A stretch of DNA of 39,115 nucleotides from a virus: IMG/VR virus record IMGVR_UViG_3300025327_000007. One strand, written 5' to 3'. The notes under the pieces were generated by a model. It ran no database searches and was not told the origin of the DNA. It was given only the letters and a program-made list of their open reading frames with translations. The position numbers and the translations under genes were made by a program. Numbering within the stretch: the first letter of the stretch is position 1; each line of letters begins with the position of its first letter. Of this stretch, positions 11,857 to 25,507 are shown piece by piece.

Positions 11857-12122
11857 TTGCGCTTCCTCCAGTCTCCGTAGACGTGACCGACCACTACGCC
11901 GAGGGCCACGCTGAAAACGCCTGTCAGGAACAGTAGCACGACGACCGTCAGATCCGGACTCGTCGCGAGTGCCCAGCGGAAGGCGGCGGTGATGTGGTTC
12001 GCGGGCATGTCGTCGCGCAGCGTGAGGAACTCGATCAGCGCGACCCAGCCCGCCGCGAGCGGCAGCGTGCCAATCGTGAGGACGAGGGTGATGATCGGCT
12101 TCCAGCCACGACGCGCCATCAC
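11853..12122 (-). CDS. Multi-TM small membrane protein (holin-like)
   Basis: Tracked ORF with 2-3 hydrophobic helices and a basic C-terminus (DWRKRK). GAGGAGGAGGG lies upstream. Confidence 0.55.
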   Translation of the reverse strand: MMARRGWKPIITLVLTIGTLPLAAGWVALIEFLTLRDDMPANHITAAFRWALATSPDLTVVVLLFLTGVFSVALGVVVGHVYGDWRKRK

Positions 12123-12138
12123 CCTCCTCCTCGGAAAG

Positions 12139-12213
12139 TGGTAGCGGAGGCGGGAGTTGAACCCGCATCCTCTCGGTTATGAGCCGAGCGCGTTACCGTT
12201 TCGCTACCCCGCG
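12139..12213 (-). tRNA. tRNA-Met (anticodon CAT), 75 nt with encoded CCA
   Basis: Folded by hand. Acceptor CGCGGGG/CTCCGCT; D arm GCGA-AACGGTA-ACGC; anticodon arm CTCGG-CTCATAA-CCGAG; T arm GCGGG-TTCAACT-CCCGC; then A-CCA. Confidence 0.85.
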
Positions 12214-12216
12214 TCA

Positions 12217-13608
12217 TCAGAACCTCGCAGGCCGGCAGACGGCCACGTATCCGCCCTTGCGCACGCGGCCGTTCGCGAAAACGATGTCGAACTGCTCGCT
12301 GCGGTCGTTGCTGTCCTTGACGCCGACTTCGTCATCGGACCCGCCTCCGGGCGTCTCCATCTTGGTCGTGGCGCAGAGCCCGCGCAGGCGTAGGCGGCGC
12401 GCGACCTCGGCGGTGAACTCGGCTTCATCCGCCACTTGGTTCGTCCCGCGCTCCGCGATGATCTCGTCGAGCACCTCGTCCACGACGCCCTGGAAGCGCG
12501 ACGGGCCACACCACTCACGCCACTTCTCGACCATCCGGCAGCAGCCGTAAATGCCCTTCTCCTCGCTGCCTGGCGCGCTGCACTCGGGCATCGGCGCAAC
12601 CCCGCACGGAGTCGGGGCGGGCACGGGTGCGGCGCCACCACCGAACATGGGCAAGAGGCGGAACCACTCCGAATCCGAGAGAGTTCCTTTCCACGCGATC
12701 AGGTGCCCTCCGTTCGCCCGGCTGAGACGCTGCATCTCCAGCCAATCCTCGGGCGTGTGGGGTTCGTTGTCGGACTCGATCAGCAGCTCGCCCCTGACAG
12801 CCGGGCGCCAGCCGTGGCCGACGACGAAGTCGAGCGCGTACCGGCCGCTGTTGCTCCCGATCAGTTTCTCGAACGGCGAGAGCCCCGATTCTTCTAACGC
12901 ACCTTGGACCGCTCGATAGATCCCGCGGATCCACGCCTCCGAGCGCTCGCCCTTGAAGCTCTCGTTGCCGTCGAAGTACACCGCGGCGGGCGACTGGCAT
13001 GTCGCCTCGACCACTTGGCGGATCCAGTCCTTGTGCCTCTGCTCCGGCGCGCGCGCCGTGACCTCCAGCCCATCTCCCCACGGCGTCTTGTCGTGATCCA
13101 GCGCCCAATGGTCGATCAGGCCGATCAGCGCGTAGATCCCGCGGGCCTCGCACTCGCGCACCGTGCGCGCCAGCTCCGGTAGCAGCGCCTCTGGCGAGGG
13201 GCTGCGGAATGGTCCGGGGCGCAGCTCGGTGATGTTGATGCCGGCCGCAGCGTAGCGATCGAGCATCGCGGGGATCACCAGCGGCCAGCCCCAGGCGATG
13301 CCCTCGTCCACGTCGGGCGTGTCGGGGTCGTCGCAACAGACCGTCGCCCCGATTAGCGGCGGGAAGAACTCCGGGAACTCGTACCGCAGCTCCGGCATCG
13401 TCGGCTCGGGCGGAGGCGGTGGCGGCGGAGGCCCAGCGTCCGGAAAGCGCTCCGCGAACTCGGGACTGCGCAGCATGTCCTCGCGGAGCTGCGCCTCGTG
13501 CAGACCTGCCTGCATCCGCGCGTTGTGGTGAAGCAACCCTTCGGCATCTGGCTCACGAAGCAGGATCTCACGATAGGCTAGCGCCACGACGTGACGGAAG
13601 TCGCTCAT
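12217..13608 (-). CDS. DUF4214-like N-terminal domain + proline linker + clan GH-A-like glycoside hydrolase + Cys-rich C-terminal domain
   Basis: YREILLREPDAEGLLHH..SPEF matches the DUF4214 pattern and is followed by P8. The motifs YFDGNESF and LLIESDNEP are TIM-barrel-type. Confidence 0.55.
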   Translation of the reverse strand: MSDFRHVVALAYREILLREPDAEGLLHHNARMQAGLHEAQLREDMLRSPEFAERFPDAGPPPPPPPPEPTMPELRYEFPEFFPPLIGATVCCDDPDTPDVDEGIAWGWPLVIPAMLDRYAAAGINITELRPGPFRSPSPEALLPELARTVRECEARGIYALIGLIDHWALDHDKTPWGDGLEVTARAPEQRHKDWIRQVVEATCQSPAAVYFDGNESFKGERSEAWIRGIYRAVQGALEESGLSPFEKLIGSNSGRYALDFVVGHGWRPAVRGELLIESDNEPHTPEDWLEMQRLSRANGGHLIAWKGTLSDSEWFRLLPMFGGGAAPVPAPTPCGVAPMPECSAPGSEEKGIYGCCRMVEKWREWCGPSRFQGVVDEVLDEIIAERGTNQVADEAEFTAEVARRLRLRGLCATTKMETPGGGSDDEVGVKDSNDRSEQFDIVFANGRVRKGGYVAVCRPARF

Positions 13609-14003
13609 GTCACCCTCAACTGGAACTCAGGGCGGTTTCCCGCTCGGTTCATGAACTCGACGAAACCCGCCTCGCTCGCTGCGATCCCGGGCTGACCAGC
13701 AAACGTCGCGTACGACTCGCCTACGAGCACGCAGCCCTCGGAGTGTAGCTCCACGTTGCCCTTGTGGAACAGCAGCCGCGCGTGCCCAGGCACTTCGATC
13801 TCGTACGTGTCGTACTCGCCTCGGAGGTAGCGCGTCCGCACGCAGCGCCAGAGGCCAGCTGGGATCTTCACGAGCTGGCCCGGACCCGATGGCAGCGCGT
13901 AGGTCCTCTCCAGGGTCGTACAAAACGGAACGTCGTGATGAAGCAAGACACCGAACGCTCCTTGCGGCAATACGACAACTCGCACGAGGGTAAAGTCAGC
14001 CAC
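13605..14003 (-). CDS. DUF5675-like protein with YkuD-type H..S.GC motif (candidate cell-wall enzyme)
   Basis: VADFTLVRVVVLPQGAFGVLL..TLERTY..IPAGLW..LLFHKGNVELHSEGCVLVG. GTG 14003 overlaps the HNH stop. Confidence 0.6.
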   Translation of the reverse strand: MADFTLVRVVVLPQGAFGVLLHHDVPFCTTLERTYALPSGPGQLVKIPAGLWRCVRTRYLRGEYDTYEIEVPGHARLLFHKGNVELHSEGCVLVGESYATFAGQPGIAASEAGFVEFMNRAGNRPEFQLRVT

Positions 14004-14601
14004 GGGCACGGAACGCACGCGCTCTCGTCTTGCAGATTTCACGGTACTGCGAGTCCTCCCGATACCGTTGTCTGCGTCGCGCATTTTCTCTGGTGCGGAA
14101 CCAGACAGAATCTTGTCGCCGCCGATAGTCTGCTGTCTTCTTTGCAGAGCATCGCCGACAGTGACGCCTCCCTGACCTGGCAACGTCGAATTGGTGCCCG
14201 CGGAGGCATTCCGTTTTTCGCGCGTTTACCGCCGTCACGCCAACACCGCGCAGTACGTTTTGTCCCCTCGTCGTTACTTCAAGGTGGTTCGGGTTCACAC
14301 ACCGGCGCACGCGGCATAGGTGATCGAGGGTGAGTTCCGTGGGAACAGGACCAACCAAATGTTCGTAAGCGTACCTGTGGGCGGAGGTCTTTCGATCTAC
14401 AAGCGTGAAACCTCCATACCCATTGGACGTCGATCCCCCGAGCCAACCCCAACAGTCGCCATGGCGAAAACCGCCGACTTCCATCGGGATCACCTTGGAC
14501 CAAAACCTGTTCGGGAGACGATCGTCGCCAAGTCTGCAAGGCAGTACGCCGAACGCGCCCTCGGGACGGATCGCGACGCGCAGCAGACCGAAGTCCTCCA
14601 T
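13996..14601 (-). CDS. HNH (HNH_3-type) homing endonuclease fused to a 20-aa DUF5675-like leader
   Basis: RFWSKV..CWGWLGGSTSNGYGGF..AHRYAYEHLVGPVP..LDHLCRVRRCVNPNHLE, plus a C-terminal CLRGH..CRRC. GC is lower. Confidence 0.8.
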   Translation of the reverse strand: MEDFGLLRVAIRPEGAFGVLPCRLGDDRLPNRFWSKVIPMEVGGFRHGDCWGWLGGSTSNGYGGFTLVDRKTSAHRYAYEHLVGPVPTELTLDHLCRVRRCVNPNHLEVTTRGQNVLRGVGVTAVNARKTECLRGHQFDVARSGRRHCRRCSAKKTADYRRRQDSVWFRTRENARRRQRYREDSQYREICKTRARAFRARG

Positions 14602-14792
14602 CACCGAAACTCCGCACGCACGCCGTGCCGCGCCATGTGCTCCACCACAGCGTTGATGGCTCCCTGCTTGGTCGCGTACACCCGAACGAACGAGCACTTC
14701 CCGCACGCCCAGCGCAGGCCGCCGCCTGCAACTGGCACCAGAAACACGACCGCACCGCCTCCGGCTTCGCCAGCGACTACGTGCGCCGTCAC
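14601..14792 (-). CDS. Hypothetical protein (63 aa)
   Basis: GTGA-coupled start VTAHVVAGE.. inside tracked ORF 14601..14861. Confidence 0.45.
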   Translation of the reverse strand: MTAHVVAGEAGGGAVVFLVPVAGGGLRWACGKCSFVRVYATKQGAINAVVEHMARHGVRAEFR

Positions 14793-14905
14793 CAGTGCCT
14801 CGGTCGGATATAGCCCCAGCGATGCATCTGGCGCCGCTCCCACCAGCGACGTAGCCACCACCCGACGCCAGTGCCAGCGATGAACGCGAGGATCTCCTGG
14901 GTCAC
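14789..14905 (-). CDS. 38-aa TM micro-protein (VTQEILAFIAGTGVGWWLRRWWERRQMHRWGYIRPRHW)
   Basis: GTGA overlaps at both ends. Hydrophobic helix followed by a basic tail. Confidence 0.35.
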   Translation of the reverse strand: MTQEILAFIAGTGVGWWLRRWWERRQMHRWGYIRPRHW

Positions 14906-15246
14906 TCGCGCGGCCTCAGCGCCCGGATTTCGCCCGTGATCGAGCCGATCGCACGCATGACCTCGCCGTGACGGTCGCCCGCCTCACTGCGGATCGCGGC
15001 GACGTCCTCGCGCACAGCCACGAGCCCCGCCTCGACCACCGACACGCGGACCTCGATCCCGCCCGCCCGCTCTTCCAGGACACCGCACGACCGCTCGCGC
15101 CGCTCATGATCGTGGCCGCTCGCTTCCCCGTTTTTCGCTCGGGCCGCACGGATGAGTCGCACGAGCGGGATGCCACCCAGAGCCGTGACGGACACCAGCA
15201 GCGTCGCGGCGAGGAGCTGACCTTCGGTGATCCGGGACCAGTCCAT
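14902..15246 (-). CDS. N-terminal TM + coiled-coil protein (114 aa; spanin- or holin-like by shape)
   Basis: MDWSRITEGQLLAATLLVSVTALGGIPLV.. followed by a helical segment. TGATG coupling. Confidence 0.5.
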   Translation of the reverse strand: MDWSRITEGQLLAATLLVSVTALGGIPLVRLIRAARAKNGEASGHDHERRERSCGVLEERAGGIEVRVSVVEAGLVAVREDVAAIRSEAGDRHGEVMRAIGSITGEIRALRPRE

Positions 15247-15536
15247 CACCACACCTCGGGCGCGCACCCGCCCGCCTGATATCCGTGCAGGTACTGCTGC
15301 CCGAAGTCGAGCAGCACGAAGCGCCCCCCAGCCTGGTCGCACAGGAAGTACAGCACCATCCGCTTGTCCCGATAGAGGATGTTCCCGGTTGGTGCCTGCT
15401 GAATCGTCGTCGGGATCGGCTGGGTCGCCGGCTTCACCGGCTTCGCCGCGCCTAGGCCGCCGGCTCCAGCAATCCACCCGAGCAGCGCAGTCGCCGAGCA
15501 GAACAGGAGCAGCTCGATCAGGCGTACCCGATCCAT
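15246..15536 (-). CDS. Signal-anchor/secreted hypothetical protein (96 aa)
   Basis: Tracked ORF with N-terminus MDRVRLIELLLFCSATALLGWIAGAGG. Confidence 0.55.
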   Translation of the reverse strand: MDRVRLIELLLFCSATALLGWIAGAGGLGAAKPVKPATQPIPTTIQQAPTGNILYRDKRMVLYFLCDQAGGRFVLLDFGQQYLHGYQAGGCAPEVW

Positions 15537-17332
15537 TATTCCCTCGCGTACGTCAGCAGGTTCGGGCCCACGACCCCGGTCAGCGTGTCGGGCGTGGCGC
15601 TCGCCAGCACGCAGCGCATGACCTCGACCGGGTCACCCGTGGTGCGCTGCGCGCAGAGCGCAGCGACACCTGCGGCGTGAGGGGAGGCCATGCTCGTCCC
15701 GCTGAAAGTGATTGAGCCGCCCCCGCGTCGTGCTGCCTCGATGTCCATGCCAGGACCATAGAGGTCAGTGCAAGGACCGCCGTTGCTGAAATCGGCCCCG
15801 CGATCGTTTCGTGGGTCCATGGCGCCGAGAGTTAACGCCAGATCCACACGGGCCGGCGAGGATCCGCAGGCATCGGCGCCATCGTTACCAGCTGCGACCA
15901 CGACCGTGAGGCCATCCGCGATGGCAGCGCAGACCGCAGCGTCGAGAGCAGGCGCAGGCGAGCCGCCGAGCGACATGTTGAGCACGCCGTTCCAACCGCC
16001 AGCCTTCCGATTCGCCGCAGCCCATTGGATACCACGGACTACGTCGGAATCGGAACCGCTGCCTTGCTCGTTCAACATCCGCACCGAGTGCAGAGTGACA
16101 CGTTTCGCGATGCCGTACTGTGTACCACCCGTGATAGAAGCCACGTGCGTCCCATGGTTGTGACGGTCCTCGCAGCCACCAAAGGTGTGCGCAGTGAAGC
16201 ACTCCCCCAGACGTCCAGCGAATTCGGAATGCTGCGAGTCGATGCCCGTGTCTCCGATGTACGCATGGATGCCCTCTCCAGTCCCAACGGGAACGAAGAT
16301 GCCGTCAAGAGGCAAGTCGCGCTGATCCGAGCGATCGAGACCGGGCGTGACAGACACGGTCAAATGTGATACTGTCTGTCCATGCACGCTCGAAACTCCG
16401 GATCCTTCCGGCCTGGGCACAAGACGTGGAACAAAGGACTGCTGAGACCACGCAGCGAACTCGGCGTCCGCTTCCAGAAGTACATACGGCCAGTGAACAC
16501 GGGCTGCCATCTCTGGACTGGAGGCTTCGCGCACGGATATGGACGCTTCCGTTTCACCACGGACGAAAGCAGAAATGCCCATCGTGTGGCTTACGAGTTG
16601 TTCGTTGGCCCGATCCCGACGGGGATGCAAGTCCATCACATCTGTGGAACGCGTGCTTGCGTCAACCCCGATCATCTGCGACTGATGACCATCGGACAGC
16701 ACACCTCGCATCATTTCCGAGGCAAGCCGAAGCGTGGTCTGCGGTGTCGCAATGGACACGAACTCTCGGCCGCGAACCTGCGAGAGGTCTATCCTCCGAA
16801 TCGCCCTGGACCTTCCATGCAATGCCGTCTCTGCGAGCGAGATCGAGGACTGCGTTGGCGAAGCCGCCACCCCGAGACCTATCGGGCCGGATACACCAGA
16901 AGCAACTTGCGACGCCAGAACCAACACACCTGAGCGCGTACTCTTGCGCCCGTCTTGCTGGACGTACGCCACCTCCGGATCGAGCGCTACCTGCGAGGCG
17001 CCCGCCGCTGTCGTCACCGCGCTGAAACCGAGGCTCCCGAGCGTCTGCACCTGGCTCAGCACCGAGTACCGGGCGGCGACCGCCTGCACCTCAGCCTGGG
17101 TCCGCACCGACTGTGCCCCCACGCGCGGACGCAGCACGACGATGTATCTGCCCTCGATCGGCTCGGCCACGGAGATCACGCCGCGCAGCGCGGGAGGCGC
17201 GGAGCAGACATAGGGCGTCTCCGGCTGCGGCGTCGGGATCGGGAAGGGCGGGCTCGGGATGGGGATCGGGAAGCCACCTCCGCACGACACCAGCAGCAGG
17301 CACAGTACGATCGCGATAGCGTGTCGAATCAA
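15536..17332 (-). CDS. Subtilisin-like (S8) serine protease lipoprotein with I9-type propeptide and a ~200-aa insert
   Basis: Catalytic triad DTGID / HGTHVAS / GTSMASPH. GGAGG lies 6 nt upstream of TTG 17332, giving MIRHAIAIVLCLLLVSC (lipobox). The insert is the antisense of the HNH gene. Confidence 0.8.
   Translation of the reverse strand: MIRHAIAIVLCLLLVSCGGGFPIPIPSPPFPIPTPQPETPYVCSAPPALRGVISVAEPIEGRYIVVLRPRVGAQSVRTQAEVQAVAARYSVLSQVQTLGSLGFSAVTTAAGASQVALDPEVAYVQQDGRKSTRSGVLVLASQVASGVSGPIGLGVAASPTQSSISLAETALHGRSRAIRRIDLSQVRGREFVSIATPQTTLRLASEMMRGVLSDGHQSQMIGVDASTRSTDVMDLHPRRDRANEQLVSHTMGISAFVRGETEASISVREASSPEMAARVHWPYVLLEADAEFAAWSQQSFVPRLVPRPEGSGVSSVHGQTVSHLTVSVTPGLDRSDQRDLPLDGIFVPVGTGEGIHAYIGDTGIDSQHSEFAGRLGECFTAHTFGGCEDRHNHGTHVASITGGTQYGIAKRVTLHSVRMLNEQGSGSDSDVVRGIQWAAANRKAGGWNGVLNMSLGGSPAPALDAAVCAAIADGLTVVVAAGNDGADACGSSPARVDLALTLGAMDPRNDRGADFSNGGPCTDLYGPGMDIEAARRGGGSITFSGTSMASPHAAGVAALCAQRTTGDPVEVMRCVLASATPDTLTGVVGPNLLTYARE
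16382..16933 (+). CDS. HNH (HNH_3-type) homing endonuclease nested antisense in the protease ORF
   Basis: CHLWTGGFAHGYGRF..AHRVAYELFVGPIP..VHHICGTRACVNPDHL, plus CRNGH..CRLC. This is the only convincing plus-strand gene. Confidence 0.8.
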   Translation: MHARNSGSFRPGHKTWNKGLLRPRSELGVRFQKYIRPVNTGCHLWTGGFAHGYGRFRFTTDESRNAHRVAYELFVGPIPTGMQVHHICGTRACVNPDHLRLMTIGQHTSHHFRGKPKRGLRCRNGHELSAANLREVYPPNRPGPSMQCRLCERDRGLRWRSRHPETYRAGYTRSNLRRQNQHT

Positions 17333-17464
17333 GCCACACCTCCTTCCTGAAAAGCGCTCACCGAGCAACCCGCCGGCCTGGTAGACTCGCGCCAACCGCA
17401 CCACCAGAGGCGAGAGGACTCGACCCGACTGGACCATGCGCCAGCGGGCTGCTCGCTGAGCGCA

Positions 17465-17779
17465 TCACGGGCACCCAAGCCGGCAACCCGCCGGCCGACC
17501 GGCGGCCACACAGTGACCGTTGCGGGCCGCGGCGGGCAAGCTGAGCCACGCTACACAGTCCGCGCGCCGGTCGTCGGCGTCGTGGTCGCTCACGATCGAC
17601 ACCAGACACGGGCCCACAAGCGCGTTGAACGCCGCTTGTTCGGTCCCGAGCCCACGATCCGTGCGGACGCGCTGAACCGTCACCTGTTCGCGTGCGGTGG
17701 CGTTGTAGGTGTAGCTGGTCTGTGCGACCACGAGTGCGGCTACGAGGAACAGCAGTACGGCGAATGCGACCTTCTTCAC
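17465..17779 (-). CDS. Secreted small protein (104 aa)
   Basis: AGGAGGG lies 4 nt upstream of the GTG. Signal peptide MKKVAFAVLLFLVAALVVAQT. Confidence 0.6.
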   Translation of the reverse strand: MKKVAFAVLLFLVAALVVAQTSYTYNATAREQVTVQRVRTDRGLGTEQAAFNALVGPCLVSIVSDHDADDRRADCVAWLSLPAAARNGHCVAAGRPAGCRLGCP

Positions 17780-17789
17780 GAGCCCTCCT

Positions 17790-18641
17790 TTAGTTGGCGG
17801 AACAAAAGATCACCTTAAGCCATGCTGGACGATTGTCAAACGAATCCCCCGTGAACGTCGGCGCGGAGTTGGACCCCGCAGGCGTCCCCGCACTCAGAGC
17901 TTCGCTCGATCCGCTGAGCGTGTGCGCTGATGGCTGCGTGACGCTGTGGGTAAGCACAGCGCCTGGGCCAGCGGTCGTACCCGTGGCGATACCCGTGCTC
18001 TGGTTCGTAGCGGTCGCGTTCTGGTTCGTGGCTGTTGCGTTGTCGGTGACAGCCGTCGTGGCTGCCGCGGCGTTCGAGCGATCCATGAACGTCCCCGACC
18101 CATCTGTGGTGCCCTCAGCCATCCCATGCTGGTGAGCGTTCTGCGTGTGAGTGTGCGCGTCCTGCGTGTGCGTGTGCGAGACCACGTCGGTGTACGTGTG
18201 CGTGTGGCTCGCATGGTCGCCGACCGCAGTTCCGGCGTGCGCGCTCGTCGCGTAGGTGCCGGTTCCGTGAGCGTGCGTCCCGAGCGCTGAGCCGGTAAAC
18301 GTCGGCGCAGTCACTATCCCGGTCGGCGTGATGTTGTTACTGCCGCCGGTCGTGCCGACGTCTCCCGCACCGTTTGTGGTCCCGAGCAAGAACTTTCCGG
18401 CGAGGCTCGCGACCTCAGTAAAACCGGCAGGGCAGGACCCGCTCACGATCAAGATCACGGCACCTGACGGAAGCGCACCGCCTCCGCACGCAACCGTCGC
18501 GATCTCGCCGCCGACGCGCTTTAGACACTCGCCATCGTTGAGCGTCCCCAGCGATAGCACCGTGCCGGCCTGGTCGATGGCTACGCTGCCCTTGTAGACG
18601 GACTGACCTGACAGCAAACAAGCGACAAGCAGCGTTAGCAT
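17790..18641 (-). CDS. Phage tail-collar-type fibre protein with His-x-His repeats and a signal-like N-terminus
   Basis: MLTLLVACLLSG.. at the N-terminus. Collar-like motifs GAVILIVSGSCPAGF..GKFLLG. HxH-rich stretch HAHGTG..SHTHTYTDVVSHTHTQDAHTHTQNAHQH. Ends ..RPAWLKVIFCSAN. Confidence 0.65.
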   Translation of the reverse strand: MLTLLVACLLSGQSVYKGSVAIDQAGTVLSLGTLNDGECLKRVGGEIATVACGGGALPSGAVILIVSGSCPAGFTEVASLAGKFLLGTTNGAGDVGTTGGSNNITPTGIVTAPTFTGSALGTHAHGTGTYATSAHAGTAVGDHASHTHTYTDVVSHTHTQDAHTHTQNAHQHGMAEGTTDGSGTFMDRSNAAAATTAVTDNATATNQNATATNQSTGIATGTTAGPGAVLTHSVTQPSAHTLSGSSEALSAGTPAGSNSAPTFTGDSFDNRPAWLKVIFCSAN

Positions 18642-19705
18642 CACGGCCTCGCCGGCTGACCTGGCCCAATCAGATCTACGCTCACGTACGCCTCGAGCGT
18701 GGTCTGCACAAGAGACGAAACGGCGTTGAGCGTGAAGTCCGCAGCGTTCGCGGGCGTCGCGGTGTCGCACGCTACCGTCACCGTGAGCGTGCCGGTCGGA
18801 GTGTTGTCTGTCTCCTCTGGCGTGCCCAGGACGCATGTCTCCACAGTTGCGTCCGCTGTTAGCGAGAAAATCACGCGGCCCTGGCGTACCTGCGGCGTGG
18901 CGCCATCCGTCGCATAGATCGTGTACCAGAACACGCCGCCCGTACCGACCTCGGCGGCGACGGGGATCTGCATCACCTTCGTGGCCACTGATTCCGTGAG
19001 CGTGACGTTGTACTTGCGTGCGGTCCCCCAATTGGCGATGGCGTTGTAGCTCGTCGTGTTCTGGACTGCGGAGTGCGCGATGAAAGCCGGATCGGTACAG
19101 GCCGCAGTGCCGCAGGGGCCGTTGTTGAAGTCGAAATTGAAGTCGCCATCTTCGTGCAGGTGCAGACTGTTGGCGGTCGTGGTCACTGTGATCGTGGCCG
19201 CATCAGGAGTCTTGGCTGCGGTTGCGGAAAAGTAGCCTAGGGAACTCACGCCGAAGTAGCCGTTCGAGATGACTGAAAAGTTGTCCGACGTGAGGATGTT
19301 TGATACAGCGTTGTAGCTGAGGTTGGACTCATCGACCAACTGTCCACCTGTGCCAGCATAGGGCACTCTAGGTGTTGTGAGGCCCGCGATCGTGAGCAGA
19401 TTCGCCGCAGAATCGTATGTAAGCCCCGCATCGTCGGCCAACACGCCGCCGGCCCCCACGAACAGGACGCGGGTCGCAGTGCCACCCGTAACGGTCCCGC
19501 CGATCGACATACCCCCACCGCCGCCGCCACCAGGCAGCGGGATGATCTGCGGCAGATACGTCGTTCGCAGTGGAGCCAGGCTCGCAACGTACACGGGACG
19601 TCCGTCCTGGACGGAGCGATCCGGAATGCGCGAGCGGTCTGCCAGATCGGCGCCGAACGCAGGCGCCGAGAGGATCAACAGCAACAGCGAGAGCAGGCGT
19701 CGCAT
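18641..19705 (-). CDS. Fibre-like protein with signal peptide (354 aa)
   Basis: MRRLLSLLLLILSAPAFGADL at the N-terminus, then a G7 tract. Fibre-type repeats LTYDSAANLLTIAG..LSYNAVSNILT. Confidence 0.6.
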   Translation of the reverse strand: MRRLLSLLLLILSAPAFGADLADRSRIPDRSVQDGRPVYVASLAPLRTTYLPQIIPLPGGGGGGGMSIGGTVTGGTATRVLFVGAGGVLADDAGLTYDSAANLLTIAGLTTPRVPYAGTGGQLVDESNLSYNAVSNILTSDNFSVISNGYFGVSSLGYFSATAAKTPDAATITVTTTANSLHLHEDGDFNFDFNNGPCGTAACTDPAFIAHSAVQNTTSYNAIANWGTARKYNVTLTESVATKVMQIPVAAEVGTGGVFWYTIYATDGATPQVRQGRVIFSLTADATVETCVLGTPEETDNTPTGTLTVTVACDTATPANAADFTLNAVSSLVQTTLEAYVSVDLIGPGQPARP

Positions 19706-20091
19706 CAGCGGAAGTACGTCACGGTCAACGTGGCATCCGCAGCGCCCTGGCGGATCGCTCGGAATCGCCTCACGCTCGTTTGACCACAGACGACGAACTT
19801 CACGTTCGTGCTTGTCTCCCACAGCTCTCCCACGGTCGCGGATGGCACCAGCCCTTCCACGCTCACCCGGATGTTGTTGCTCTCGAGCGTGACCTGCGCG
19901 AACTTGACGTCGCCCATGCCGTCGGCGTAGGTGCCCGCGGTGAATGGGAGCGCTGTGGTGGAGATCGTGATCGCTTCGCGCGCGTACGCCTCGACTGGTC
20001 CAGTCACGCCAGGACACACCTGCGCTTGTACGGCTCCTGGCAACAGCACGAATCCGAGCAGCGCTACGATCGCCCGCCATGTCTTTCGCAC
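19705..20091 (-). CDS. Secreted beta-rich protein (128 aa)
   Basis: GGAGGG upstream of GTG 20091. Signal peptide VRKTWRAIVALLGFVLLPGAVQAQ. Confidence 0.6.
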   Translation of the reverse strand: MRKTWRAIVALLGFVLLPGAVQAQVCPGVTGPVEAYAREAITISTTALPFTAGTYADGMGDVKFAQVTLESNNIRVSVEGLVPSATVGELWETSTNVKFVVCGQTSVRRFRAIRQGAADATLTVTYFR

Positions 20092-20099
20092 GTTCCCTC

Positions 20100-20288
20100 C
20101 TACTTCCAAGCTCGTTCCGAGGCGCGTATCGTCTGGAGCGCTTCCAGCGCGTCGACCAGGCGACGGTTGAGTTTCTTCTGAAACTCCCTTTGGCACTGCT
20201 CGCAGAGGACGCCCGACGGTAGCCGCACCGGATGGTCGTCGCCATTCCGGCACAGAGGTTGATCAGGCACCGTCGACGCCTGGCTCAC
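20100..20288 (-). CDS. Small Cys-containing protein (62 aa)
   Basis: GTGA-coupled start VSQASTVPDQPLC..CEQC. Confidence 0.45.
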   Translation of the reverse strand: MSQASTVPDQPLCRNGDDHPVRLPSGVLCEQCQREFQKKLNRRLVDALEALQTIRASERAWK

Positions 20289-20944
20289 GAGAACCTCCGG
20301 GCAGAGTATACCGCTGTCAAGTCCTTTGCTGCACGCCTTTGCGAGGCTGTCGGGACCCCGATCTCGACCTCGATCCCATGCACCAGGCGCATGAGCATAC
20401 GGATCTTCTCGGTTCTTGCGTCGGTACGTTTGCTGCCCTTGGCGTCGAGTACATGCCGACGCCCGCTGTCGGCGTCCGTCCACGAGTAATCGGGTGTGTA
20501 GCTGGCAAACGTACGGCGCGACTCACGGACGCGTTGGGCCCGCGCCCACCACTCGTCCCCTACTTCGTGGCTGCGCTCAATCGCTACCAGGATCTCCTCA
20601 ACCTCGCGCGTCCCGTACAGATCGAGCCGGTACGTCTCGCGCGGCTGATCGTTGCAGCGGCGCAGGTCCCGGATCCGACCCGCACGCTCTTCCTGCGCGA
20701 GCCAGATCCCGATCGCCGCCTCGCTCTCGGACTGACGCAGTCGGCCCGTGTCGTCGCGCGTGGGATTCGCACGCCAGCGTCCGATCTGTACGCGATCCAT
20801 GCAGGACATACAACTCCAGACGCGGTATCGACCCGGGCGGCCGTCACGCAGCGGGTACGCCTTGATCAGGGGACGCTCGCGGTTACAACGTACGCAGAAG
20901 CCGGAGCGCTGGACCCTCACGCGACCGCACTCACGCGACCGCAT
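20285..20944 (-). CDS. Zinc finger + DUF1064-like (putative junction-resolving nuclease)
   Basis: CVRC..CMSC at the N-terminus. SESEAAIGIWL..AGRIRDL and YTPDYSW..HVLDAKGSKRTD resemble the DUF1064 pattern. Confidence 0.45.
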   Translation of the reverse strand: MRSRECGRVRVQRSGFCVRCNRERPLIKAYPLRDGRPGRYRVWSCMSCMDRVQIGRWRANPTRDDTGRLRQSESEAAIGIWLAQEERAGRIRDLRRCNDQPRETYRLDLYGTREVEEILVAIERSHEVGDEWWARAQRVRESRRTFASYTPDYSWTDADSGRRHVLDAKGSKRTDARTEKIRMLMRLVHGIEVEIGVPTASQRRAAKDLTAVYSARRFS

Positions 20945-21350
20945 CCACGGGAAACTCGATCCCACGCTGACGCCCCTCGCGCAGCACGCGCTCCAGGTAC
21001 GTGCTCATCTCCTCGGCGTTCAGATCCGCCAGGCTTGGAAGCTCCGTCCGCTCCTCGCCTGTGAGCCGTGCGAGCACGAGCTGAGGCGCCAGGAACGCAC
21101 GCTTGAGCTCGCGGTGCATCTCGTCGGGATCGTACCCGCACCACTCGGCCCACGCGGGCATGACCGCAGCAAAGTAGAGCGCGAGTTGCGGGTTGGTCTT
21201 GGGCTTCACGTACCTCCGCACCACGACCGTTACGCGTCGGCTCTTCCACTTCGCCAGCCGCCCGCGTGTGGCGTTGACCTGGTCGGGACGCACGTGACCG
21301 CGGTCGTCCACCGACCCGGTGAACACGATCGCCTCGGACTGCTCGCTCAT
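20931..21350 (-). CDS. NinB/Orf-like recombination mediator (tentative)
   Basis: VTVVVRRYVKPKTNPQLALYFAAV..WCGYDPDEMHRELK..EEMSTYLERVL parallels the lambda NinB layout. ATGA coupling. Confidence 0.4.
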   Translation of the reverse strand: MSEQSEAIVFTGSVDDRGHVRPDQVNATRGRLAKWKSRRVTVVVRRYVKPKTNPQLALYFAAVMPAWAEWCGYDPDEMHRELKRAFLAPQLVLARLTGEERTELPSLADLNAEEMSTYLERVLREGRQRGIEFPVDAVA

Positions 21351-21529
21351 GAGGGTTCGATCTCCCGGTAGCGGAACTGCGGAACGTCGATCGCGCGGGG
21401 TCGAGGGCGCCGATCGTCGCGCTCGAAGAGCTTGGCGCGACACGTCATACGCCGTGGCGGGCTCGGCGGCACGTACGCGACGACGAGGCTACCGTCCACG
21501 AACACGAACTCGGCGTTGGGCCCGGTCAT
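21347..21529 (-). CDS. Hypothetical protein (60 aa)
   Basis: ATGA overlaps at both ends. Starts MTGPNAEFVFVDGSLVV.. Confidence 0.4.
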   Translation of the reverse strand: MTGPNAEFVFVDGSLVVAYVPPSPPRRMTCRAKLFERDDRRPRPRAIDVPQFRYREIEPS

Positions 21530-22227
21530 GCCGCGACCTCGAAGCGCTTCAGCTTGTCCACCAAGCCACGGTCCCGGGCCCACGCCACGAACTCCGCGAT
21601 CCACCGCTCGAGTTTCTCGGCCATCTCGGCCTGGCGCCACATGCGGAACACGTGTATCTCCTCGAGACGTGGACCACCCTTGGCGATGCGCAGCTCGCCA
21701 TCGTCGCCCGAGTACAGGCCACCGATCTCGTGCAGCCGATACTCGACCGCCACAGCCCACGGCAACATGTCGAGATAGAATTGCCACTGAAGCGAGTCCC
21801 CGACCTCCACCGGATCCACGTACCCGAACTTGGTTTTGCCCTCGATCAGGATCAACCCGTGCACGGCGTCGACGCGCCCGGCGACCGTGATCGTATCGCC
21901 TCCGATGCGGTAGTCCTTCTCGCAGCGGCGCTCGAACACGCAGCCCTTCGGCCACTCCGCGAGGCACGGATCCACGATGGCCGCCGGCCACGGGATCTCG
22001 CGCTCGACGCCGTCGCTCCCGTGCGGCACGTACAGATACGAGCGATCCGCGATTCGCCAGCGGTCGGGGTCCTGGATGCATGCGTGGAGGGCGGTCCCCC
22101 ACTGTGCCTGCCAGCCGAGGGGCGCTCGCTCGCGGATCGACTTGATGAGCTGCGCCTCGGATGCCCACTCGGTCTCGACGACGCGCCGGAACTCATCGAC
22201 CCGCGACACGGACGCATAGAGGTTCAT
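21526..22227 (-). CDS. PD-(D/E)XK (Cas4/RecB-like) nuclease
   Basis: The GRVDAV..LILIEGKT motif and its position beside the AAA_24 ATPase. Confidence 0.6.
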   Translation of the reverse strand: MNLYASVSRVDEFRRVVETEWASEAQLIKSIRERAPLGWQAQWGTALHACIQDPDRWRIADRSYLYVPHGSDGVEREIPWPAAIVDPCLAEWPKGCVFERRCEKDYRIGGDTITVAGRVDAVHGLILIEGKTKFGYVDPVEVGDSLQWQFYLDMLPWAVAVEYRLHEIGGLYSGDDGELRIAKGGPRLEEIHVFRMWRQAEMAEKLERWIAEFVAWARDRGLVDKLKRFEVAA

Positions 22228-22231
22228 CGCC

Positions 22232-23239
22232 TCACTCGAACTGCTGCGGCTGGCGCCCCTTGGGCGCCGCCTTCGGTTTCTCCTGCTCCTGCTTCGATGC
22301 CGGCTGCGTCTCTTCGGCTTTCGCGCTCGACTTGAAGAACGCCCGCTTGGGCTGGTCGAACTCGAGCCCGAGCGCTTTCGCCCGCCGCCAAAGCAGCGTC
22401 TTAGCCTGGGCGCGCACAGCCTCGTGCGCGATGTCGCTCACCTTGGCGATCTGCCCCGTGAGCGCCACGGCCGTCGCGTCCAGGCCGTCGATGGCGGCGT
22501 GCCAGTCGGCCACCTGCTTCAGCACCGTGAGCTGCTCCTGGCTCAGCGCGTTGAGGTGATCCTTGAGCGGCTGCAGAATCTTGTCCGCCAGGAACGTCGT
22601 GGCTGTTGCGTAGTCGGGCACAACGATCTTGCCCCACGCGGGCGGGTTCTTGCCGATGTGCGCGTCGGTCGCGTTGAAGTCGAGCACGCGGCGCCCGTTC
22701 TCGAGCGAATAGTACGCCATCGCGTCGCTGACCTTGAAGACCTCGCCGGCCGAGCCGCCAACGATGTCCGGGTACACGGCCTTGTTGCCTTCCTTGTCCT
22801 TCTCGATCTTCGCGTGCGAGAGCAGGAGCACGTCCTTGCGCCGGCGCCGGATCGTCGAAAAGAACGTGATGAACCGCTGCTTCATGGCACCCCACCCGCG
22901 CTGATTCAGGCCGCTGAGCGGCGTACCGAGCTTCGCATCGCCTCCGATGATCTCGTTGCTGAGCATGTCGAGTCCCCGGCCGACCGTGTCGAGCGCGAGC
23001 GTCTCAGCCTCGTCGAGCCACGGATGCTTCAGCAGCTCCTCGAGGTCGGACCAGCGCTCCAGACGGACCACGCGCTGACGCCCGAGGCTGCGGTGAGCGC
23101 CGTCGTCGAAGTCGATCAGCAGCACTTTACGCCCCATGTTCGCCAGCGTCGACTTGCCGATCCCGGGGTCGGAGAACACGTGGATCACCACGTTCTCCAC
23201 CTTGATGGCGTCGTGTCCTTCGATCAGTTGTAGGCTCAC
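22232..23239 (-). CDS. AAA_24/Sak4-like RecA-fold ATPase
   Basis: GTGA-coupled start VSLQLIEG... The P-loop HVFSDPGIGKSTLA is followed by VLLIDFDDG. Confidence 0.65.
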   Translation of the reverse strand: MSLQLIEGHDAIKVENVVIHVFSDPGIGKSTLANMGRKVLLIDFDDGAHRSLGRQRVVRLERWSDLEELLKHPWLDEAETLALDTVGRGLDMLSNEIIGGDAKLGTPLSGLNQRGWGAMKQRFITFFSTIRRRRKDVLLLSHAKIEKDKEGNKAVYPDIVGGSAGEVFKVSDAMAYYSLENGRRVLDFNATDAHIGKNPPAWGKIVVPDYATATTFLADKILQPLKDHLNALSQEQLTVLKQVADWHAAIDGLDATAVALTGQIAKVSDIAHEAVRAQAKTLLWRRAKALGLEFDQPKRAFFKSSAKAEETQPASKQEQEKPKAAPKGRQPQQFE

Positions 23240-23346
23240 TTCTTCACCTCCCGCCGGCAGTCCCGGCACAGCTTCGTCGCGACGAGCCGACCAGACGGCG
23301 GCCCGATCCAGCGACGGCAACGCCAGCACCAGTAATACTGCGCCAT
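23236..23346 (-). CDS. 36-aa zinc-ribbon protein
   Basis: GAGGAGG upstream of ATG 23346. Sequence MAQYYWCWRC..CRDC. Confidence 0.5.
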   Translation of the reverse strand: MAQYYWCWRCRRWIGPPSGRLVATKLCRDCRREVKK

Positions 23347-23359
23347 GCTCGCCTCCTCC

Positions 23360-23653: not shown

Positions 23654-23671
23654 GTCAACCTCCACGCCCCC

Positions 23672-23700
23672 AATATAGGCTACAAGCGCTAGCTTGTCAA
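23672..23700 (-). promoter_or_regulatory. Sigma70-type promoter P2 (TTGACA-17 nt-TATATT) with overlapping 16-bp palindrome
   Basis: Minus strand reads tacTTGACAAGCTAGCGCTTGTagccTATATTgggggcgtGGAGGttgacATG. The palindrome is ACAAGC-TAGC-GCTTGT. Confidence 0.6.
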
Positions 23701-24190: not shown

Positions 24191-25507
24191 CTACCCGATG
24201 ACCTCGACGATCATGCCCTGTTGCCGGATGTCGTCGTTCGTCGTGGCCTCACCCGTGAACTTGATCGTCACAGCTCCCGACAGCGTCTCGGCTGGAGTCG
24301 CAACGGCTGGTGAGTACACGTCGGGCACACCTCCATAGCGCATCCACACCGTACCCTTCAGAACCTGCGTCGCGGCACCCGTACGGACGATGTACACCTC
24401 GGCATGCCAGAGGGCGGCATTGAACCCACCATTGAACAGCGAGATGTTCGTCGCGCCGAAGTACGCCTTGAGCTGCTTGTTGTTCGCGTTGCCTGCCGTG
24501 TCGCCCCACGTCAAGATGCGGATGAGTTTGCCGTTCGCATCGAGTGCGTTGGCGAGCAGCGAGTAGCTCATCAGGTCGTCTTCGCCAGCCCCAACGTTGC
24601 CGACCGTAGTCGTGTTGGTCGACACCCTGCCGGAGATGGTGGCGTCGGCGCTGGCGCTTGCACCGGGCCGGAAGGTCGCAGGAGCGTTGAACACTGGCGC
24701 GCTCGTGAAGGTCTTCACCCCCGAGCCAAGCGTCTGCGCCGCGAGCGACACGATGCCGGCGGCAGTCGCGGAGGCAGGCGTCAAGACCGACGTCGCAATC
24801 ACCAGCGACGTCGCGGAGTCCGCAACGCCCAAGATCCGTTGGTTCGCTGGTGCTGTGCTCGTGATCGCCCCGGGTGTCGCCGACACGTAGTACGTGCTGC
24901 CTGGCGTCAACCCAGCCAGTCCCGTCAAGCGCCCGCTCATGCGGATGCTGCCAGCCGCGGCCGATGCGATAGCGGAGGGCGCGAAACCGACAGCTTGTGG
25001 CAGCGTGCTCGAGTAGGTGTTGTCCGAGTCCGTCTTGTACCAGCGTCCAGCCGTGAGTCCGCCACTGCCATCGCTCACGTACACTGCATCACTCGCCGAC
25101 AGGGCTTCTCCTGCAGTACCCAACACGTCTAGGTCAGTGCTGATGTACGCAACCGCGCCCACGTTGTCCACCGTCCAATAGGCAGCGGTCGGCGGGTCGG
25201 TGTCCGTCGACGGCGCGAAGGTGAACTTGTAGGCAGTGGCACTCAGGAACACCGTCGCCTGCCCGGAAGAATCGCAGACGACGGGGTTCGCGTTGGGCGT
25301 GGCCAGCGTCGCATCGGTGTAGGTGTCGAGCTTCGTCGTGGTGCCAGACGCGTACGTGAACAGCTTCCCGCCGCTCACGATCGCTCCGTTGTTGTCCAGG
25401 CAGTAGAACTTCGGCGAGGGCATCACCGTTCCGGTCGCGCTCCATGCCTGGATCGAGAATGCGAGCAGCAAGACGCCGGCGAGGCTGAGCGTGCGCGTGC
25501 GGGTCAT
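24191..25507 (-). CDS. Tailspike/tail fibre with signal-like N-terminus
   Basis: FYCLDNNGAIVSGGKLFTYASGTTTKLDTYTD..NPVVCDSSGQATVFL is a common fibre N-domain pattern. This is the last gene of the structural operon. N-terminus MTRTRTLSLAGVLLLAFSIQAWSA. Confidence 0.7.
   Translation of the reverse strand: MTRTRTLSLAGVLLLAFSIQAWSATGTVMPSPKFYCLDNNGAIVSGGKLFTYASGTTTKLDTYTDATLATPNANPVVCDSSGQATVFLSATAYKFTFAPSTDTDPPTAAYWTVDNVGAVAYISTDLDVLGTAGEALSASDAVYVSDGSGGLTAGRWYKTDSDNTYSSTLPQAVGFAPSAIASAAAGSIRMSGRLTGLAGLTPGSTYYVSATPGAITSTAPANQRILGVADSATSLVIATSVLTPASATAAGIVSLAAQTLGSGVKTFTSAPVFNAPATFRPGASASADATISGRVSTNTTTVGNVGAGEDDLMSYSLLANALDANGKLIRILTWGDTAGNANNKQLKAYFGATNISLFNGGFNAALWHAEVYIVRTGAATQVLKGTVWMRYGGVPDVYSPAVATPAETLSGAVTIKFTGEATTNDDIRQQGMIVEVIG

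Follow-up and report, generated by a model that had tools for sequence, protein, structure and literature searches.

A swappable gene block adjoining the lysis genes of an uncultured phage encodes tail-fiber-like proteins and a protease with export signals

Gene block and predicted leaders

We analyzed a 39,115-nucleotide stretch of DNA (the window) from a 39-kb uncultured phage, whose coat protein is 30-35% identical to that of the PBR31/P26218/VvAW1-like P22-coat podoviruses. Five consecutive genes, gA to gE, are located on the minus strand between positions 15536 and 20091. They lie 3.6-8 kb downstream of a sigma-70-like promoter (23672..23700, minus strand; TTGACA-17-TATATT, 11/12 matches), the only such site within 11500-26000, in the one-directional gene array that it heads. 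This swappable block adjoins the lysis genes and encodes tail-fiber-like proteins and a protease with export signals. The expected location of its products is therefore outside the cytoplasm, the compartment in which virus particles are built.

The first gene, gA (19705..20091), encodes a predicted exported small beta protein of 128 aa. It starts at GTG 20091, 5 nt downstream of AGGAGG, and its leader, MRKTWRAIVALLGFVLLPGAVQA before Q (residues 1-23, nt 20023-20091), precedes a mature start Q-V-C-P-G and two conserved Cys. The start of gB (18641..19705; 354 aa), ATG 19705, overlaps the gA stop in TGATG. This fiber-like protein consists of a leader (MRRLLSLLLLILSAPAFG before A, residues 1-18), a conserved docking-like segment with poly-Gly (19-65), a fiber repeat (66-155), and a beta-sandwich tip domain with four Cys (156-354; pLDDT >90 in the AF2 model). 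Its model gave Foldseek matches to viral tail fibers and tailspikes; YadA-like adhesin heads were also among the matches. The same TGATG overlap couples gC (17790..18641; 283 aa), starting at ATG 18641, to gB. gC is a collar/HxH (Gp10_C-related) protein with leader MLTLLVACLLSG before Q, an HxH-rich stretch (nt ~18123-18275), and invariant Cys70 and Cys280; it has no direct Pfam match itself, and the more distant of its >1000 homologues carry PF21939 (Gp10_C). The small Cys-rich protein gD (17465..17779; 104 aa) starts at GTG 17779 behind AGGAGG and has a leader of 19 residues, MKKVAFAVLLFLVAALVVA before Q, with a mature start Q-T-S-Y. PADLOC, PHROGs, and Pfam gave no match for gA to gD. The labels fiber-like, collar/HxH, and subtilase, given in a preliminary description of this DNA, hold for the gB model and folds, for the HxH repeats and Gp10_C homologues of gC, and for the Peptidase_S8 match of gE.

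That description had also listed the five genes as all coding for exported proteins, and the start sites, leaders, and conservation across homologues bear this out at the sequence level. Each of the five starts is supported either by an AGGAGG ribosome-binding site or by a TGATG stop/start overlap, and no better upstream start codon removes any leader. The leaders of gA, gB, and gD are classical Sec leaders and that of gE is a lipoprotein leader; the gC leader alone is atypical and weak (residues 1-12, no K/R in the n-region). These calls rest on an n/h-region heuristic and on conservation across homologues. In a crude n/h-region test, 13/45 window proteins have a hydrophobic N-terminus, and 7 of the 13 genes are consecutive (gA to gE and two downstream membrane proteins; P ~0.001 by shuffling). 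The hydrophobic start earlier reported for 34266-35075 is likewise present.

Leaders, cysteine pairs, and fiber-type domains

We then looked into the conservation of the leaders, which are kept as a property while their sequences drift, over hundreds of diverged homologues (50%-identity clusters for gB). Leaders were found in 6/6 gA homologues, in 121/150 gB cluster representatives (the top 150 of 660), and in 74/120 gC homologues. All six gA homologues combine a divergent h-region with a conserved AxA↓Q(V/T)CPG site and two Cys, and a gA-like gene of another contig (L011) has no leader. Conserved cysteine pairs co-vary with the leader in the gB and gC families: both Cys70 and Cys280 are present in 64/74 leader-bearing gC homologues and neither in 38/46 leaderless ones, and gB-family members with canonical virion-fiber N-termini (MADQKISALTA...) lack all four Cys. 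By sequence, the two families occur in two forms, leaderless virion versions and leader-bearing versions. The tracking of the leader by Cys pairs that are absent from leaderless virion versions suggests that the domains fold outside the cytoplasm, in an oxidizing compartment; Cys counts are 2, 4, or 4 in the exported proteins of the window versus 0 in its coat, portal, and ejection proteins. We infer that the products of gA to gE are exported and form disulfides. The core inference of the preliminary description, that fiber-type proteins carry genuine export signals, an unexpected feature in parts of a virion, is strongly supported by leaders maintained over hundreds of diverged homologues, conserved AxA↓Q sites, and Cys pairs that follow the leader.

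The gC protein shares HxH repeats and collar-like ends with T4 gp10/gp12-type tips (Gp10_C, HxH metal-binding collar fibers), and the gB tip domain also ends canonical leaderless podovirus fibers with MADxKISALTA N-termini. Unlike in these fibers, a signal peptide in gB and gC replaces the virion-docking N-terminus of leaderless relatives, and cysteine pairs are added. Profile comparison revealed no homology of gB or gC to the window's own virion fiber candidates, which leaves the idea of a plain decoy made from the phage's own receptor-binding protein unsupported.

It could be argued that nothing is exported and that the hydrophobic N-termini are start-site artifacts or uncleaved tethers for assembly at the membrane. 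The gC leader is short and uncharged, and internal Met66 (gB) and Met30 (tailspike, see below) would yield canonical leaderless fiber N-termini. However, these internal Met lack the strong ribosome-binding sites or coupling of the chosen starts, the positively charged n-regions predict a topology in which the N-terminus stays inside and the domain comes to lie outside, conservation extends to the AxA↓Q sites, Cys pairs follow the leader, and leaders persist over hundreds of 50%-identity clusters. We regard this explanation as extremely improbable; membrane tethering for cytoplasmic assembly, raised in the preliminary description, is itself disfavored by the n-region charges and the Cys co-variation.

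A mosaic block and a tailspike with a leader

A sibling phage retains gA, the gB N-terminus, and gE, while distal gB, gC, and gD are swapped, which is an arms-race signature. Similar leader-bearing clusters were found in ~8 other uncultured phage contigs, and the module is a mosaic that recurs widely. In L014, L015, L016, L017, and L022, clusters with gA-, gB-, gC-, or gD-like members have holin or endolysin genes as neighbors, and the cluster is 0-2 genes from putative holin or endolysin genes in 6/8 surveyed loci. Leader-bearing relatives of gD adjoin gC-like or gB-like genes in L015 (1e-4) and in the sibling (L026/L027, 37% identity). Canonical tail-fiber slots are occupied in two contigs: three leader-bearing proteins (965, 161, and 290 aa) come after the ejection proteins in L022, and in L011 the coat and adaptor genes flank five leader-bearing genes.

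The tailspike orthologue (24191..25507, minus strand; 438 aa), for which a signal-like start had been reported, does begin with a 23-aa Sec-type leader (nt 25439-25507). Its start has ATGA coupling to a gp16-like gene and a GAGG ribosome-binding site. Behind the leader lies a particle-binding ("head-binding") domain (residues 36-114, nt 25166-25402), which matches the tailspike head-binding domains of PDB entries 9vyg and 7eeq at ~1e-7. The gene takes the position of P22 gp9, immediately following the gene for the gp16-like ejection protein, and the window has in common with PBR31/P26218/VvAW1-like podoviruses the synteny of adaptor, acetyltransferase, three ejection proteins, and tailspike, with the same N-terminal particle-binding domain in the latter. 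The PBR31 and P26218 orthologues are leaderless and begin directly at this domain, whereas the window tailspike has 23 extra residues, which form a classical leader, and two Cys in the domain. The tailspike is the real paradox, having kept its particle-binding domain and gained a leader relative to its cultured relatives.

The tailspike bears on an alternative in which the exported proteins are true virion fibers or spikes that mature in the periplasm as disulfide-stabilized trimers and dock onto cytoplasm-built particles only when holin action opens the inner membrane at lysis. An in-virion-type domain behind a leader absent from cultured orthologues fits this alternative better than the envelope-acting module that we favor below. 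The L022 and L011 arrangements also argue for it, as do the conserved N-terminus and swapped tip of gB, an evolution typical of receptor-binding fibers, and the fact that tailless heads accept P22 tailspikes in vitro. Nevertheless, no precedent is known in tailed phages, docking after lysis would be inefficient, and a leaderless DUF5907 fiber in the window (9678-11072) could serve the virion. Moreover, gB and gC lack the docking N-termini, and their companions in the cluster include a lipoprotein protease of cellular type and very small proteins rich in Cys. We consider virion maturation in the periplasm unlikely, yet the main rival of the module proposed below.

The protease, the lysis genes, and a proposed function

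The last gene, gE (15536..17332, minus strand), encodes a 598-aa lipoprotein subtilase. Its true start is TTG 17332 (with AGGAGG) within a 633-aa open reading frame, and the JGI gene call yields the same product (P0271). The leader, MIRHAIAIVLCLLLVS before C (nt 17282-17332), has the lipobox L-V-S-C. Behind it come a Pro-rich linker, an I9-like propeptide (Inhibitor_I9 below cutoff), and a ~190-aa insert (nt ~16361-16930) ahead of the S8 catalytic domain (nt 15599-16258; Peptidase_S8, 6e-33), which has an intact D361/H393/S547 triad. The protein is 55-76% identical to aqualysin/proteinase-K-type lipoprotein subtilases and has lipobox, I9 propeptide, triad, and oxyanion Asn in common with them; unlike them, it is phage-borne, with a long Pro-rich linker and the in-frame insert. 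Related cellular lipoprotein subtilases sit on contigs up to 804 kb, from which type gE was captured; this origin clearly sets it apart from the parts of a virion. The insert is the antisense of an HNH_3 homing endonuclease gene (16382..16933, plus strand; Pfam HNH_3, 1.6e-16; phrog_826, 3e-40) between propeptide and catalytic domain. No intron model matches at this insertion, the ~400-aa homologues all have the lipobox Cys and no insert, the sibling protease (P0272) is without the HNH insertion, and DNA homology to the sibling ends exactly at 16934.

Through overlaps of start and stop codons, translation of gE is coupled to that of two small membrane proteins, each with a TM segment at its N-terminus (15246-15536, 96 aa; 14902-15246, 114 aa, TM plus coiled coil; both minus strand). 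They are presumably lysis proteins of holin or spanin type, and their homologues adjoin a Hydrolase_2 endolysin in the sibling (L026). A DUF5675 protein (13605..14042, minus strand; Pfam, 2.4e-13), in the slot where the sibling has Hydrolase_2, is presumably the endolysin of this cassette, with a putative enzymatic role. No canonical lipoprotein o-spanin gene, embedded or overlapped, was seen by eye in 14600-15540.

This coupling, the endolysin-type gene that follows, the o-spanin search, and the proximity of 6/8 clusters to lysis genes argue for a lysis accessory, in which exported needle-like HxH trimers and the tethered protease take the place of spanins, working from the inside against outer-membrane tethers or outer layers. 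Adjacency is weak evidence, however, as tail-fiber genes are common neighbors of lysis cassettes in any case. Like spanins (Rz/Rz1, u-spanin), the module would be envelope-located, with a lipoprotein component in a lysis cassette, but gE is a 598-aa enzyme and not a short Pro-rich o-spanin, and gA to gD lack the coiled-coil i-spanin layout. For a leader-bearing esterase adjoining the PBR31 lysis genes, the authors propose an aid to lysis (PMC10975493); PBR31 has, however, a putative spanin besides its leader-bearing fiber-like gp35. Fiber-tip binding domains and cassette swapping would not be expected of a generic lysis device, and we hold a lysis accessory to be rather improbable.

We propose, tentatively and at somewhat less than an even chance, that gA to gE form a non-virion, envelope-acting module derived from receptor-binding fiber tips, serving exclusion or receptor masking and helping at lysis. 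The preliminary description had offered an exported envelope-acting module as one option; it is the best-supported reading, whichever of exclusion, masking, degradation, or lysis may apply. The scheme that we infer for complex formation, ligand, timing, and function is the following. gA, gB, gD, and probably gC would undergo Sec translocation and cleavage by signal peptidase I, often exposing an N-terminal Gln, while gE would be lipidated at Cys17 and membrane-tethered via its Pro-rich linker; the domains would fold with disulfides outside the cytoplasm. The translationally coupled gA, gB, and gC probably make one fiber-like complex. Its base (gA and the gB N-terminus) would be conserved, and the binding domains at its distal end (gB tip, gC) would be exchangeable. 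The complex would bind, and the protease cleave, envelope components of the infected cell, so that cell and debris would no longer be a target, giving superinfection exclusion and untrapped progeny; the protease may also weaken the envelope for the lysis cassette. We counted for this module the verified starts and leaders, the nonrandom run of hydrophobic N-termini, leader conservation, Cys tracking, the missing virion-docking N-termini, the cellular gE, the lysis coupling, the swapped distal genes of the sibling, the recurrence of leader-bearing clusters beside holin or endolysin genes, and the precedents given below; against it, the weak gC leader, the lack of homology to the window's own virion fiber candidates, the conservation of gC and the gB tip across phages of widely differing GC (see below), the tail-fiber slots in L011 and L022, the tailspike leader, and the leaderless gA-like gene of L011. 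A further point against it is that a Sec leader reaches only the periplasm in a diderm host, and receptors are usually on the outer surface.

Phages do encode exported exclusion or lysis proteins beside receptor-binding or lysis genes. T5 Llp, phi80/N15 Cor, TP-J34 Ltp, T4 Spackle (Sp) and RI, and P22 SieA resemble gA to gE in having Sec or lipoprotein signals, acting on the envelope, and being encoded beside receptor-binding, ejection, or lysis genes. In contrast to gA to gE, they are small single proteins without fiber architecture and none is a multigene mosaic module; PADLOC, PHROGs, and Pfam revealed no sequence relation to gA to gD. Sec-type leaders, sometimes with Gln at +1, also occur in PBR31 gp35 and gp40, P26218 gp24, and five Q-rule genes of P. 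gingivalis Nixviridae, located between tailspike and holin or near lysis genes, but these are single genes, versus a five-gene block here, without sequence similarity to gA to gD. Published discussion among them covers PBR31 gp40 and the P. gingivalis genes, a set of five reported to have leaders with Gln at +1 and to be unexplained (PMC10367356).

As to whom the block benefits, its products might be host-benefit morons, adhesins and a protease that alter the surface of the infected or lysogenized cell and have nothing to do with phage entry or exit. The adhesin-head matches of gB and the cellular origin of the protease would agree with this, and Bdellovibrio has cellular exported fiber adhesins with phage-fiber architecture. 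We judge it very unlikely: no integrase or repressor was found in the window, every gene is on the same strand, behind a single promoter, in a lytic-type layout, and members of the gB and gC families are all but missing from 185,579 species-representative genomes. gB and gC also matched none of 50,697 GenBank phages. Between phages of 41 to 65% GC, identities amount to 40-58% for gC and the gB tip, which suggests a conserved target and not a variable receptor.

Start sites and leader sequences of gA to gE

We looked into the start sites of the five consecutive minus-strand genes gA (19705-20091), gB (18641-19705), gC (17790-18641), gD (17465-17779) and gE (15536-17332), the last of which encodes a lipoprotein subtilase. 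The starts used in the preliminary description turned out to be the best supported in each case: GTG 20091 (gA), GTG 17779 (gD) and TTG 17332 (gE) are preceded by AGGAGG at optimal spacing, and ATG 19705 (gB) and ATG 18641 (gC) lie in a TGATG that overlaps the upstream stop. Since gE starts at TTG 17332, its 633-aa ORF shortens to 598 aa, and an independent JGI gene call predicts the same product. Choosing starts further upstream would abolish the leaders (predicted N-terminal export signals), but none of these has a ribosome-binding site and all overlap the upstream gene heavily. No adequate ribosome-binding site was found for the internal starts that may still give leaderless isoforms (Met66 of gB and Met30 of the 438-aa tailspike orthologue encoded at 24191-25507 on the minus strand).

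Inspection and a scripted heuristic revealed in gA, gB, gD and the tailspike orthologue a positive n-region, an uninterrupted h-region of 8 to 15 residues and small amino acids at positions -3 and -1, the three features by which we recognized Sec/signal peptidase I leaders. Those of gA, gB and gD are of textbook form, with K/R in the n-region, a hydrophobic core and small -3/-1 residues. The leader of gC is made of 12 uncharged hydrophobic residues ending in SG↓Q and agrees with the h-region and -1/-3 rules only, without a charged n-region. For lipoproteins, we looked for [LVI][ASTVI][GAS]C closing a short hydrophobic leader; gE has L14-V15-S16-C17 (LVS↓C) after MIRHAIAIVLCLL, and this Cys does not vary among the 8 homologues aligned. 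Tat export was rejected on inspection, as the RR of gB is not part of an S/T-R-R-x-F-L-K motif and the gB h-region is not mildly hydrophobic. A hydrophobic N terminus was found in 13/45 proteins of the window, 7 of which are consecutive (gA to gE and two membrane proteins; P of ∼0.001 by shuffling, with a crude heuristic). Judged from sequence, gA, gB, gD and gE are very probably exported, and we consider the export of gC likely with less confidence.

Leader conservation and fiber-tip relationships

Comparison with relatives supported the proposal that the genes encode exported proteins, as the leaders are kept in homologues. They persist there as a physicochemical property, and sequence conservation is confined to the mature part. 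Leader-bearing clusters also recur in a sibling phage and in unrelated phage contigs. The six gA homologues all carry leaders, with differing h-regions that lead to AxA↓Q and then to (V/T)CPGVTG and a further Cys, both of them conserved. An exhaustive HMMER search with gB yielded 660 clusters at 50% identity, with leaders in 121 of the 150 best representatives; the others of these 150 are mostly fragments or have an N-terminal extension before the leader. Among more than 1,000 scored homologues of gC, leaders were found in 74 of the best 120. Cys70 and Cys280 are both present in 64/74 of these leader-bearing proteins and both absent in 38/46 of the leaderless ones. Members of the gB family with a canonical virion-fiber N terminus (MADQKISALTA...) have none of the four tip-domain cysteines. 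Within the window, the exported proteins contain 2, 4, 4, and 2 cysteines, and the coat, portal and three large ejection proteins contain 0. Gln follows a candidate cleavage site in ∼50% of the gB and gC homologues that bear a leader versus 3/99 protease homologues, in 6/6 gA homologues and at the predicted sites of gA, gC and gD.

Leader conservation, cysteine co-variation and the N-in orientation predicted from the charged n-regions together suggest that the leader-bearing domains fold outside the cytoplasm. They disfavor start-site artefacts and oppose the idea, raised in the preliminary description, that the leaders serve as membrane tethers for cytoplasmic assembly. The co-variation of the cysteine pairs also lends indirect support to the translocation and cleavage of the leader-bearing proteins.

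We then analyzed the domains that follow the leaders. The fiber-like character ascribed to gB was confirmed by its structural model, in which a beta-rich fiber segment precedes a confidently modeled C-terminal beta-sandwich (residues ∼155 to 354, pLDDT >90) with matches to tail-fiber folds. With Foldseek, the model retrieved phage tail-fiber, tailspike and T4 gp9-type domains from the PDB, all with low TM scores, and 100 matches from BFVD at E ≤ 1e-3, including annotated tail fibers, Mtd-N proteins and YadA-like heads. gC has HxH repeats and collar-like ends, and its monomer model was too poor to be of use (pLDDT of 54). It had no Pfam match at E ≤ 0.01 (PF21939 and PF07484 included), and its subfamily profile had no PDB sequence match. 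PF21939 (Gp10_C) is carried by distant leaderless homologues, which gC matches at 1e-33 to 1e-57, and gC may belong with the Gp10_C/tail-collar HxH fiber tips by transitive homology only. gA and gD are small proteins, beta and Cys-rich, without a family match in Pfam, PHROGs or NCBIfam. No T9SS C-terminal sorting domain or other NCBIfam family was found in gA to gD, and our search for defense or exclusion families (PADLOC, PHROGs) gave no match for these four proteins and only a generic subtilase model for gE. The relation of gA to a 128-aa gene upstream of the leaderless fiber was also evaluated, and the comparison did not support paralogy.

Fibers of tailed phages are textbook cytoplasmic assemblies. 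The gB and gC families appear to be two large fiber-tip-derived families that have switched compartment, gaining signal peptides and disulfide cysteines. Neither gB nor gC had a match in 50,697 GenBank phage records searched by megablast and tblastn, with a low-complexity filter that may mask part of gC, and two scans of 185,579 species-representative genomes gave essentially no matches for the two families.

Genome setting, mosaicism and the gE protease

The window is the complete, circularly permuted genome (∼39.1 kb, 65% GC) of a podovirus, with one tRNA-Met and every gene on the minus strand. It encodes a P22-type coat, scaffold, portal (which wraps the window ends), adaptor, an Hc3/gp10-like protein and three ejection-type proteins; no integrase was found in it. 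The same phage occurs in many metagenome assemblies of groundwater or sediment type, and its nearest cultured relatives are Xanthomonas phage PBR31, Rhodoferax phage P26218 and VvAW1-like Vibrio phages, with coat identities of 30 to 35%. As to the host, the two scans of species-representative genomes yielded nothing beyond a Pyrinomonadaceae MAG contig of 1.7 kb and a weak match in Hyphomicrobiaceae. The frequency of +1 Gln in the leader-bearing proteins recalls the Bacteroidetes Q-rule, and five unexplained leader-bearing Q-rule genes are described in phages of P. gingivalis (PMC10367356). Despite the frequent +1 Gln, a Bacteroidota host is disfavored by the strong AGGAGG sites and the 65% GC.

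A strong sigma-70-like promoter, the only near-consensus one within 11500-26000 (TTGACA-17-TATATT, 23700-23672, minus strand), lies in a gene-free stretch of ∼490 nt (23666-24190) where the structural genes end and the early genes begin; given this position, the entire one-directional array probably starts from it. The gA to gE block lies 3.6 to 8 kb downstream of this promoter, after the Sak4 and NinB recombination genes and directly before a lysis-type cassette. We inspected this cassette for a spanin pair, which would combine an i-spanin (N-terminal TM segment and periplasmic coiled coil) with a short lipoprotein o-spanin: 14902-15246 encodes a TM segment and a coiled-coil-like region, and by eye no short lipobox ORF was seen near it.

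We next compared the block between phages. In the sibling phage (L026/L027), from the same sample series, the DNA is 94% identical through gA and the first ∼265 nt of gB, beyond which almost no similarity is seen up to a point shortly before the protease gene, two short gB-derived matches excepted. The sibling interval encodes a gB of 514 aa whose distal part differs, an 83-aa protein, a diverged leader-bearing gD and a leader-bearing protein of 748 aa that has 14 Cys and an SO2946-like_C domain. In another relative (L028), gA, a variant of gB and a protein resembling gD are encoded just upstream of the small terminase gene, with one 91-aa gene between. Unrelated phage contigs of 41 to 65% GC (L011, L014, L015, L016, L017, L018 and L022) harbor 2 to 7 consecutive leader-bearing genes, including gA-, gB-, gC- or gD-like members. 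Counting the window, the cluster is no more than 2 genes away from putative holin/endolysin genes in 6/8 loci and sits in the canonical tail-fiber slot in 2/8. Pattern scans of IMG/VR and JGI metagenomes added few further loci. The fiber-tip-derived families form swappable modules in many uncultured phages.

gE is an aqualysin-type subtilase (PF00082 at 6.4e-33; cutoff of 21.8 bits), with the D361, H393, S547 triad and the oxyanion N483 invariant in the homologue alignment. Inhibitor_I9 (PF05922) scored 17.2 bits, under its cutoff of 21.2, and the same region aligns with homologues that carry PF05922. The homologues have ∼400 aa, are also lipoproteins and in many cases are encoded on large cellular contigs. 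Between propeptide and catalytic domain, gE contains an in-frame insert of ∼190 aa, which is the antisense of an HNH_3 homing endonuclease gene (16382-16933, plus strand; 1.6e-16) marked by a GC dip to 0.60. The sibling protease (P0272) has no insert, and the DNA homology to the sibling breaks exactly at 16934; no group I or II intron was matched in Rfam around the insert. The protease frame is open through the insert as the codon-complement frame, and the chance of encountering no stop over 184 codons is ∼0.11. Given its position at the propeptide junction, the insert may simply be discarded with the propeptide.

L016, which also has a gB-like gene, encodes next to its lysis genes (11240-11881) a protein that bears a leader and a trypsin-like "ALHC" motif, so that modules of this kind may repeatedly be accompanied by an exported protease. 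The first 20 residues encoded by a second HNH_3 gene of the window (13996-14601, minus strand; 9e-11) nearly repeat (60% identity) the N terminus of the DUF5675 protein encoded by the overlapped downstream gene (13605-14042, minus strand). A Hydrolase_2 endolysin occupies this position in the sibling phage, and the 13605-14601 region looks like an endonuclease-associated replacement of the endolysin.

Possible roles of the exported proteins

The preliminary description had raised an exported envelope-acting module as one possibility, and we favor the reading that gA to gE form such a module outside the virion. We do so because gB and gC have lost the virion-docking N termini of their leaderless relatives, because the block holds a captured cellular lipoprotein protease and is translationally contiguous with the lysis genes, and because siblings have swapped cassettes, as would suit an arms-race role, for example in exclusion or the masking of receptors. 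In addition, all leader-bearing phage proteins characterized near receptor-binding or lysis genes are, to our knowledge, non-virion (Llp, Cor, Ltp, Sp, RI and spanins). Other observations weigh against it: gC and the gB tip are strongly conserved across phages, Sec in a diderm host delivers to the periplasm only, and neither gB nor gC is homologous to the fibers of the phage itself. BLAST all-against-all and hhalign comparisons with the DUF5907 fiber (9678-11072) and the tailspike orthologue (24191-25507) were negative, which argues against decoy copies of these fibers.

The chief rival explanation is that virion fibers mature in the periplasm. It is supported by the tailspike orthologue, which occupies the P22 gp9 slot and has a classical 23-residue Sec-type leader, starting at a GAGG site with ATGA coupling, followed by an intact particle-binding (head-binding) domain; its orthologues in the cultured phages PBR31 and P26218 begin directly with this domain, without a leader. 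Residues 36 to 114 match 9vyg and 7eeq at 1.6e-7 to 7.5e-7, as well as the tailspikes of 27 GenBank phages, and two Cys (36 and 78) lie inside the domain. No tailspike-type particle-binding domain was detected in gB or gC. In a wider form of this explanation, which we consider unlikely, some tailed phages would route receptor-binding proteins via Sec, and assembly would be split over two compartments. Tailspikes and fibers, among them the tailspike orthologue and perhaps gB and gC, would acquire disulfides as they fold in the periplasm, where they might already act on nascent surface polymers, and would join DNA-filled particles only at lysis.

Should the proteins act outside the virion, as we favor, they would constitute a widespread new class of phage tools acting on the envelope of the infected cell, and receptor-binding proteins of high stability could be drawn from them. 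Their presence in the virion would instead mean that a phage can be assembled across two compartments. In both cases, the "tail fiber" label given by annotation pipelines would mislead host-range predictions.

The sole obvious leaderless receptor-binding candidate is the 464-aa DUF5907-repeat fiber (9678-11072, minus strand), encoded far from the structural block, after tRNA-Met, with a Cys every 71 residues (98, 169, 240 and 311). Next to the lysis genes, 12217-13608 (minus strand) encodes a 463-aa protein that begins in a DUF4214-like manner and contains a poly-Pro linker and 11 Cys; its homologue in L016 (12287-13324) is a lipoprotein with a Pro/Thr-rich linker. Among the head-to-tail genes, 34266-35075 (minus strand) encodes a 269-aa protein with 2 Cys and a long hydrophobic N terminus (signal or anchor) and is flanked by two paralogous small protein genes (35084-35728 and 33612-34073); the syntenic position in L011 holds five leader-bearing genes.

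Our literature search for signal peptides on tail fibers and tailspikes found no description of leader-bearing fiber families. The closest statements are those on the five P. gingivalis phage genes mentioned above and, in PMC10975493, on an esterase that bears a leader and is encoded near the lysis genes of PBR31; the searched passages of the PBR31 paper discuss neither PBR31 gp35 nor P26218 gp24. Both proteins bear leaders and are encoded between tailspike and holin: gp35 (L030, 8127-8936), annotated as a "putative structural protein," is fiber-like, and gp24 (L031, 7718-8227) has an AQA↓Q site. They offer a direct experimental entry point in cultured relatives.
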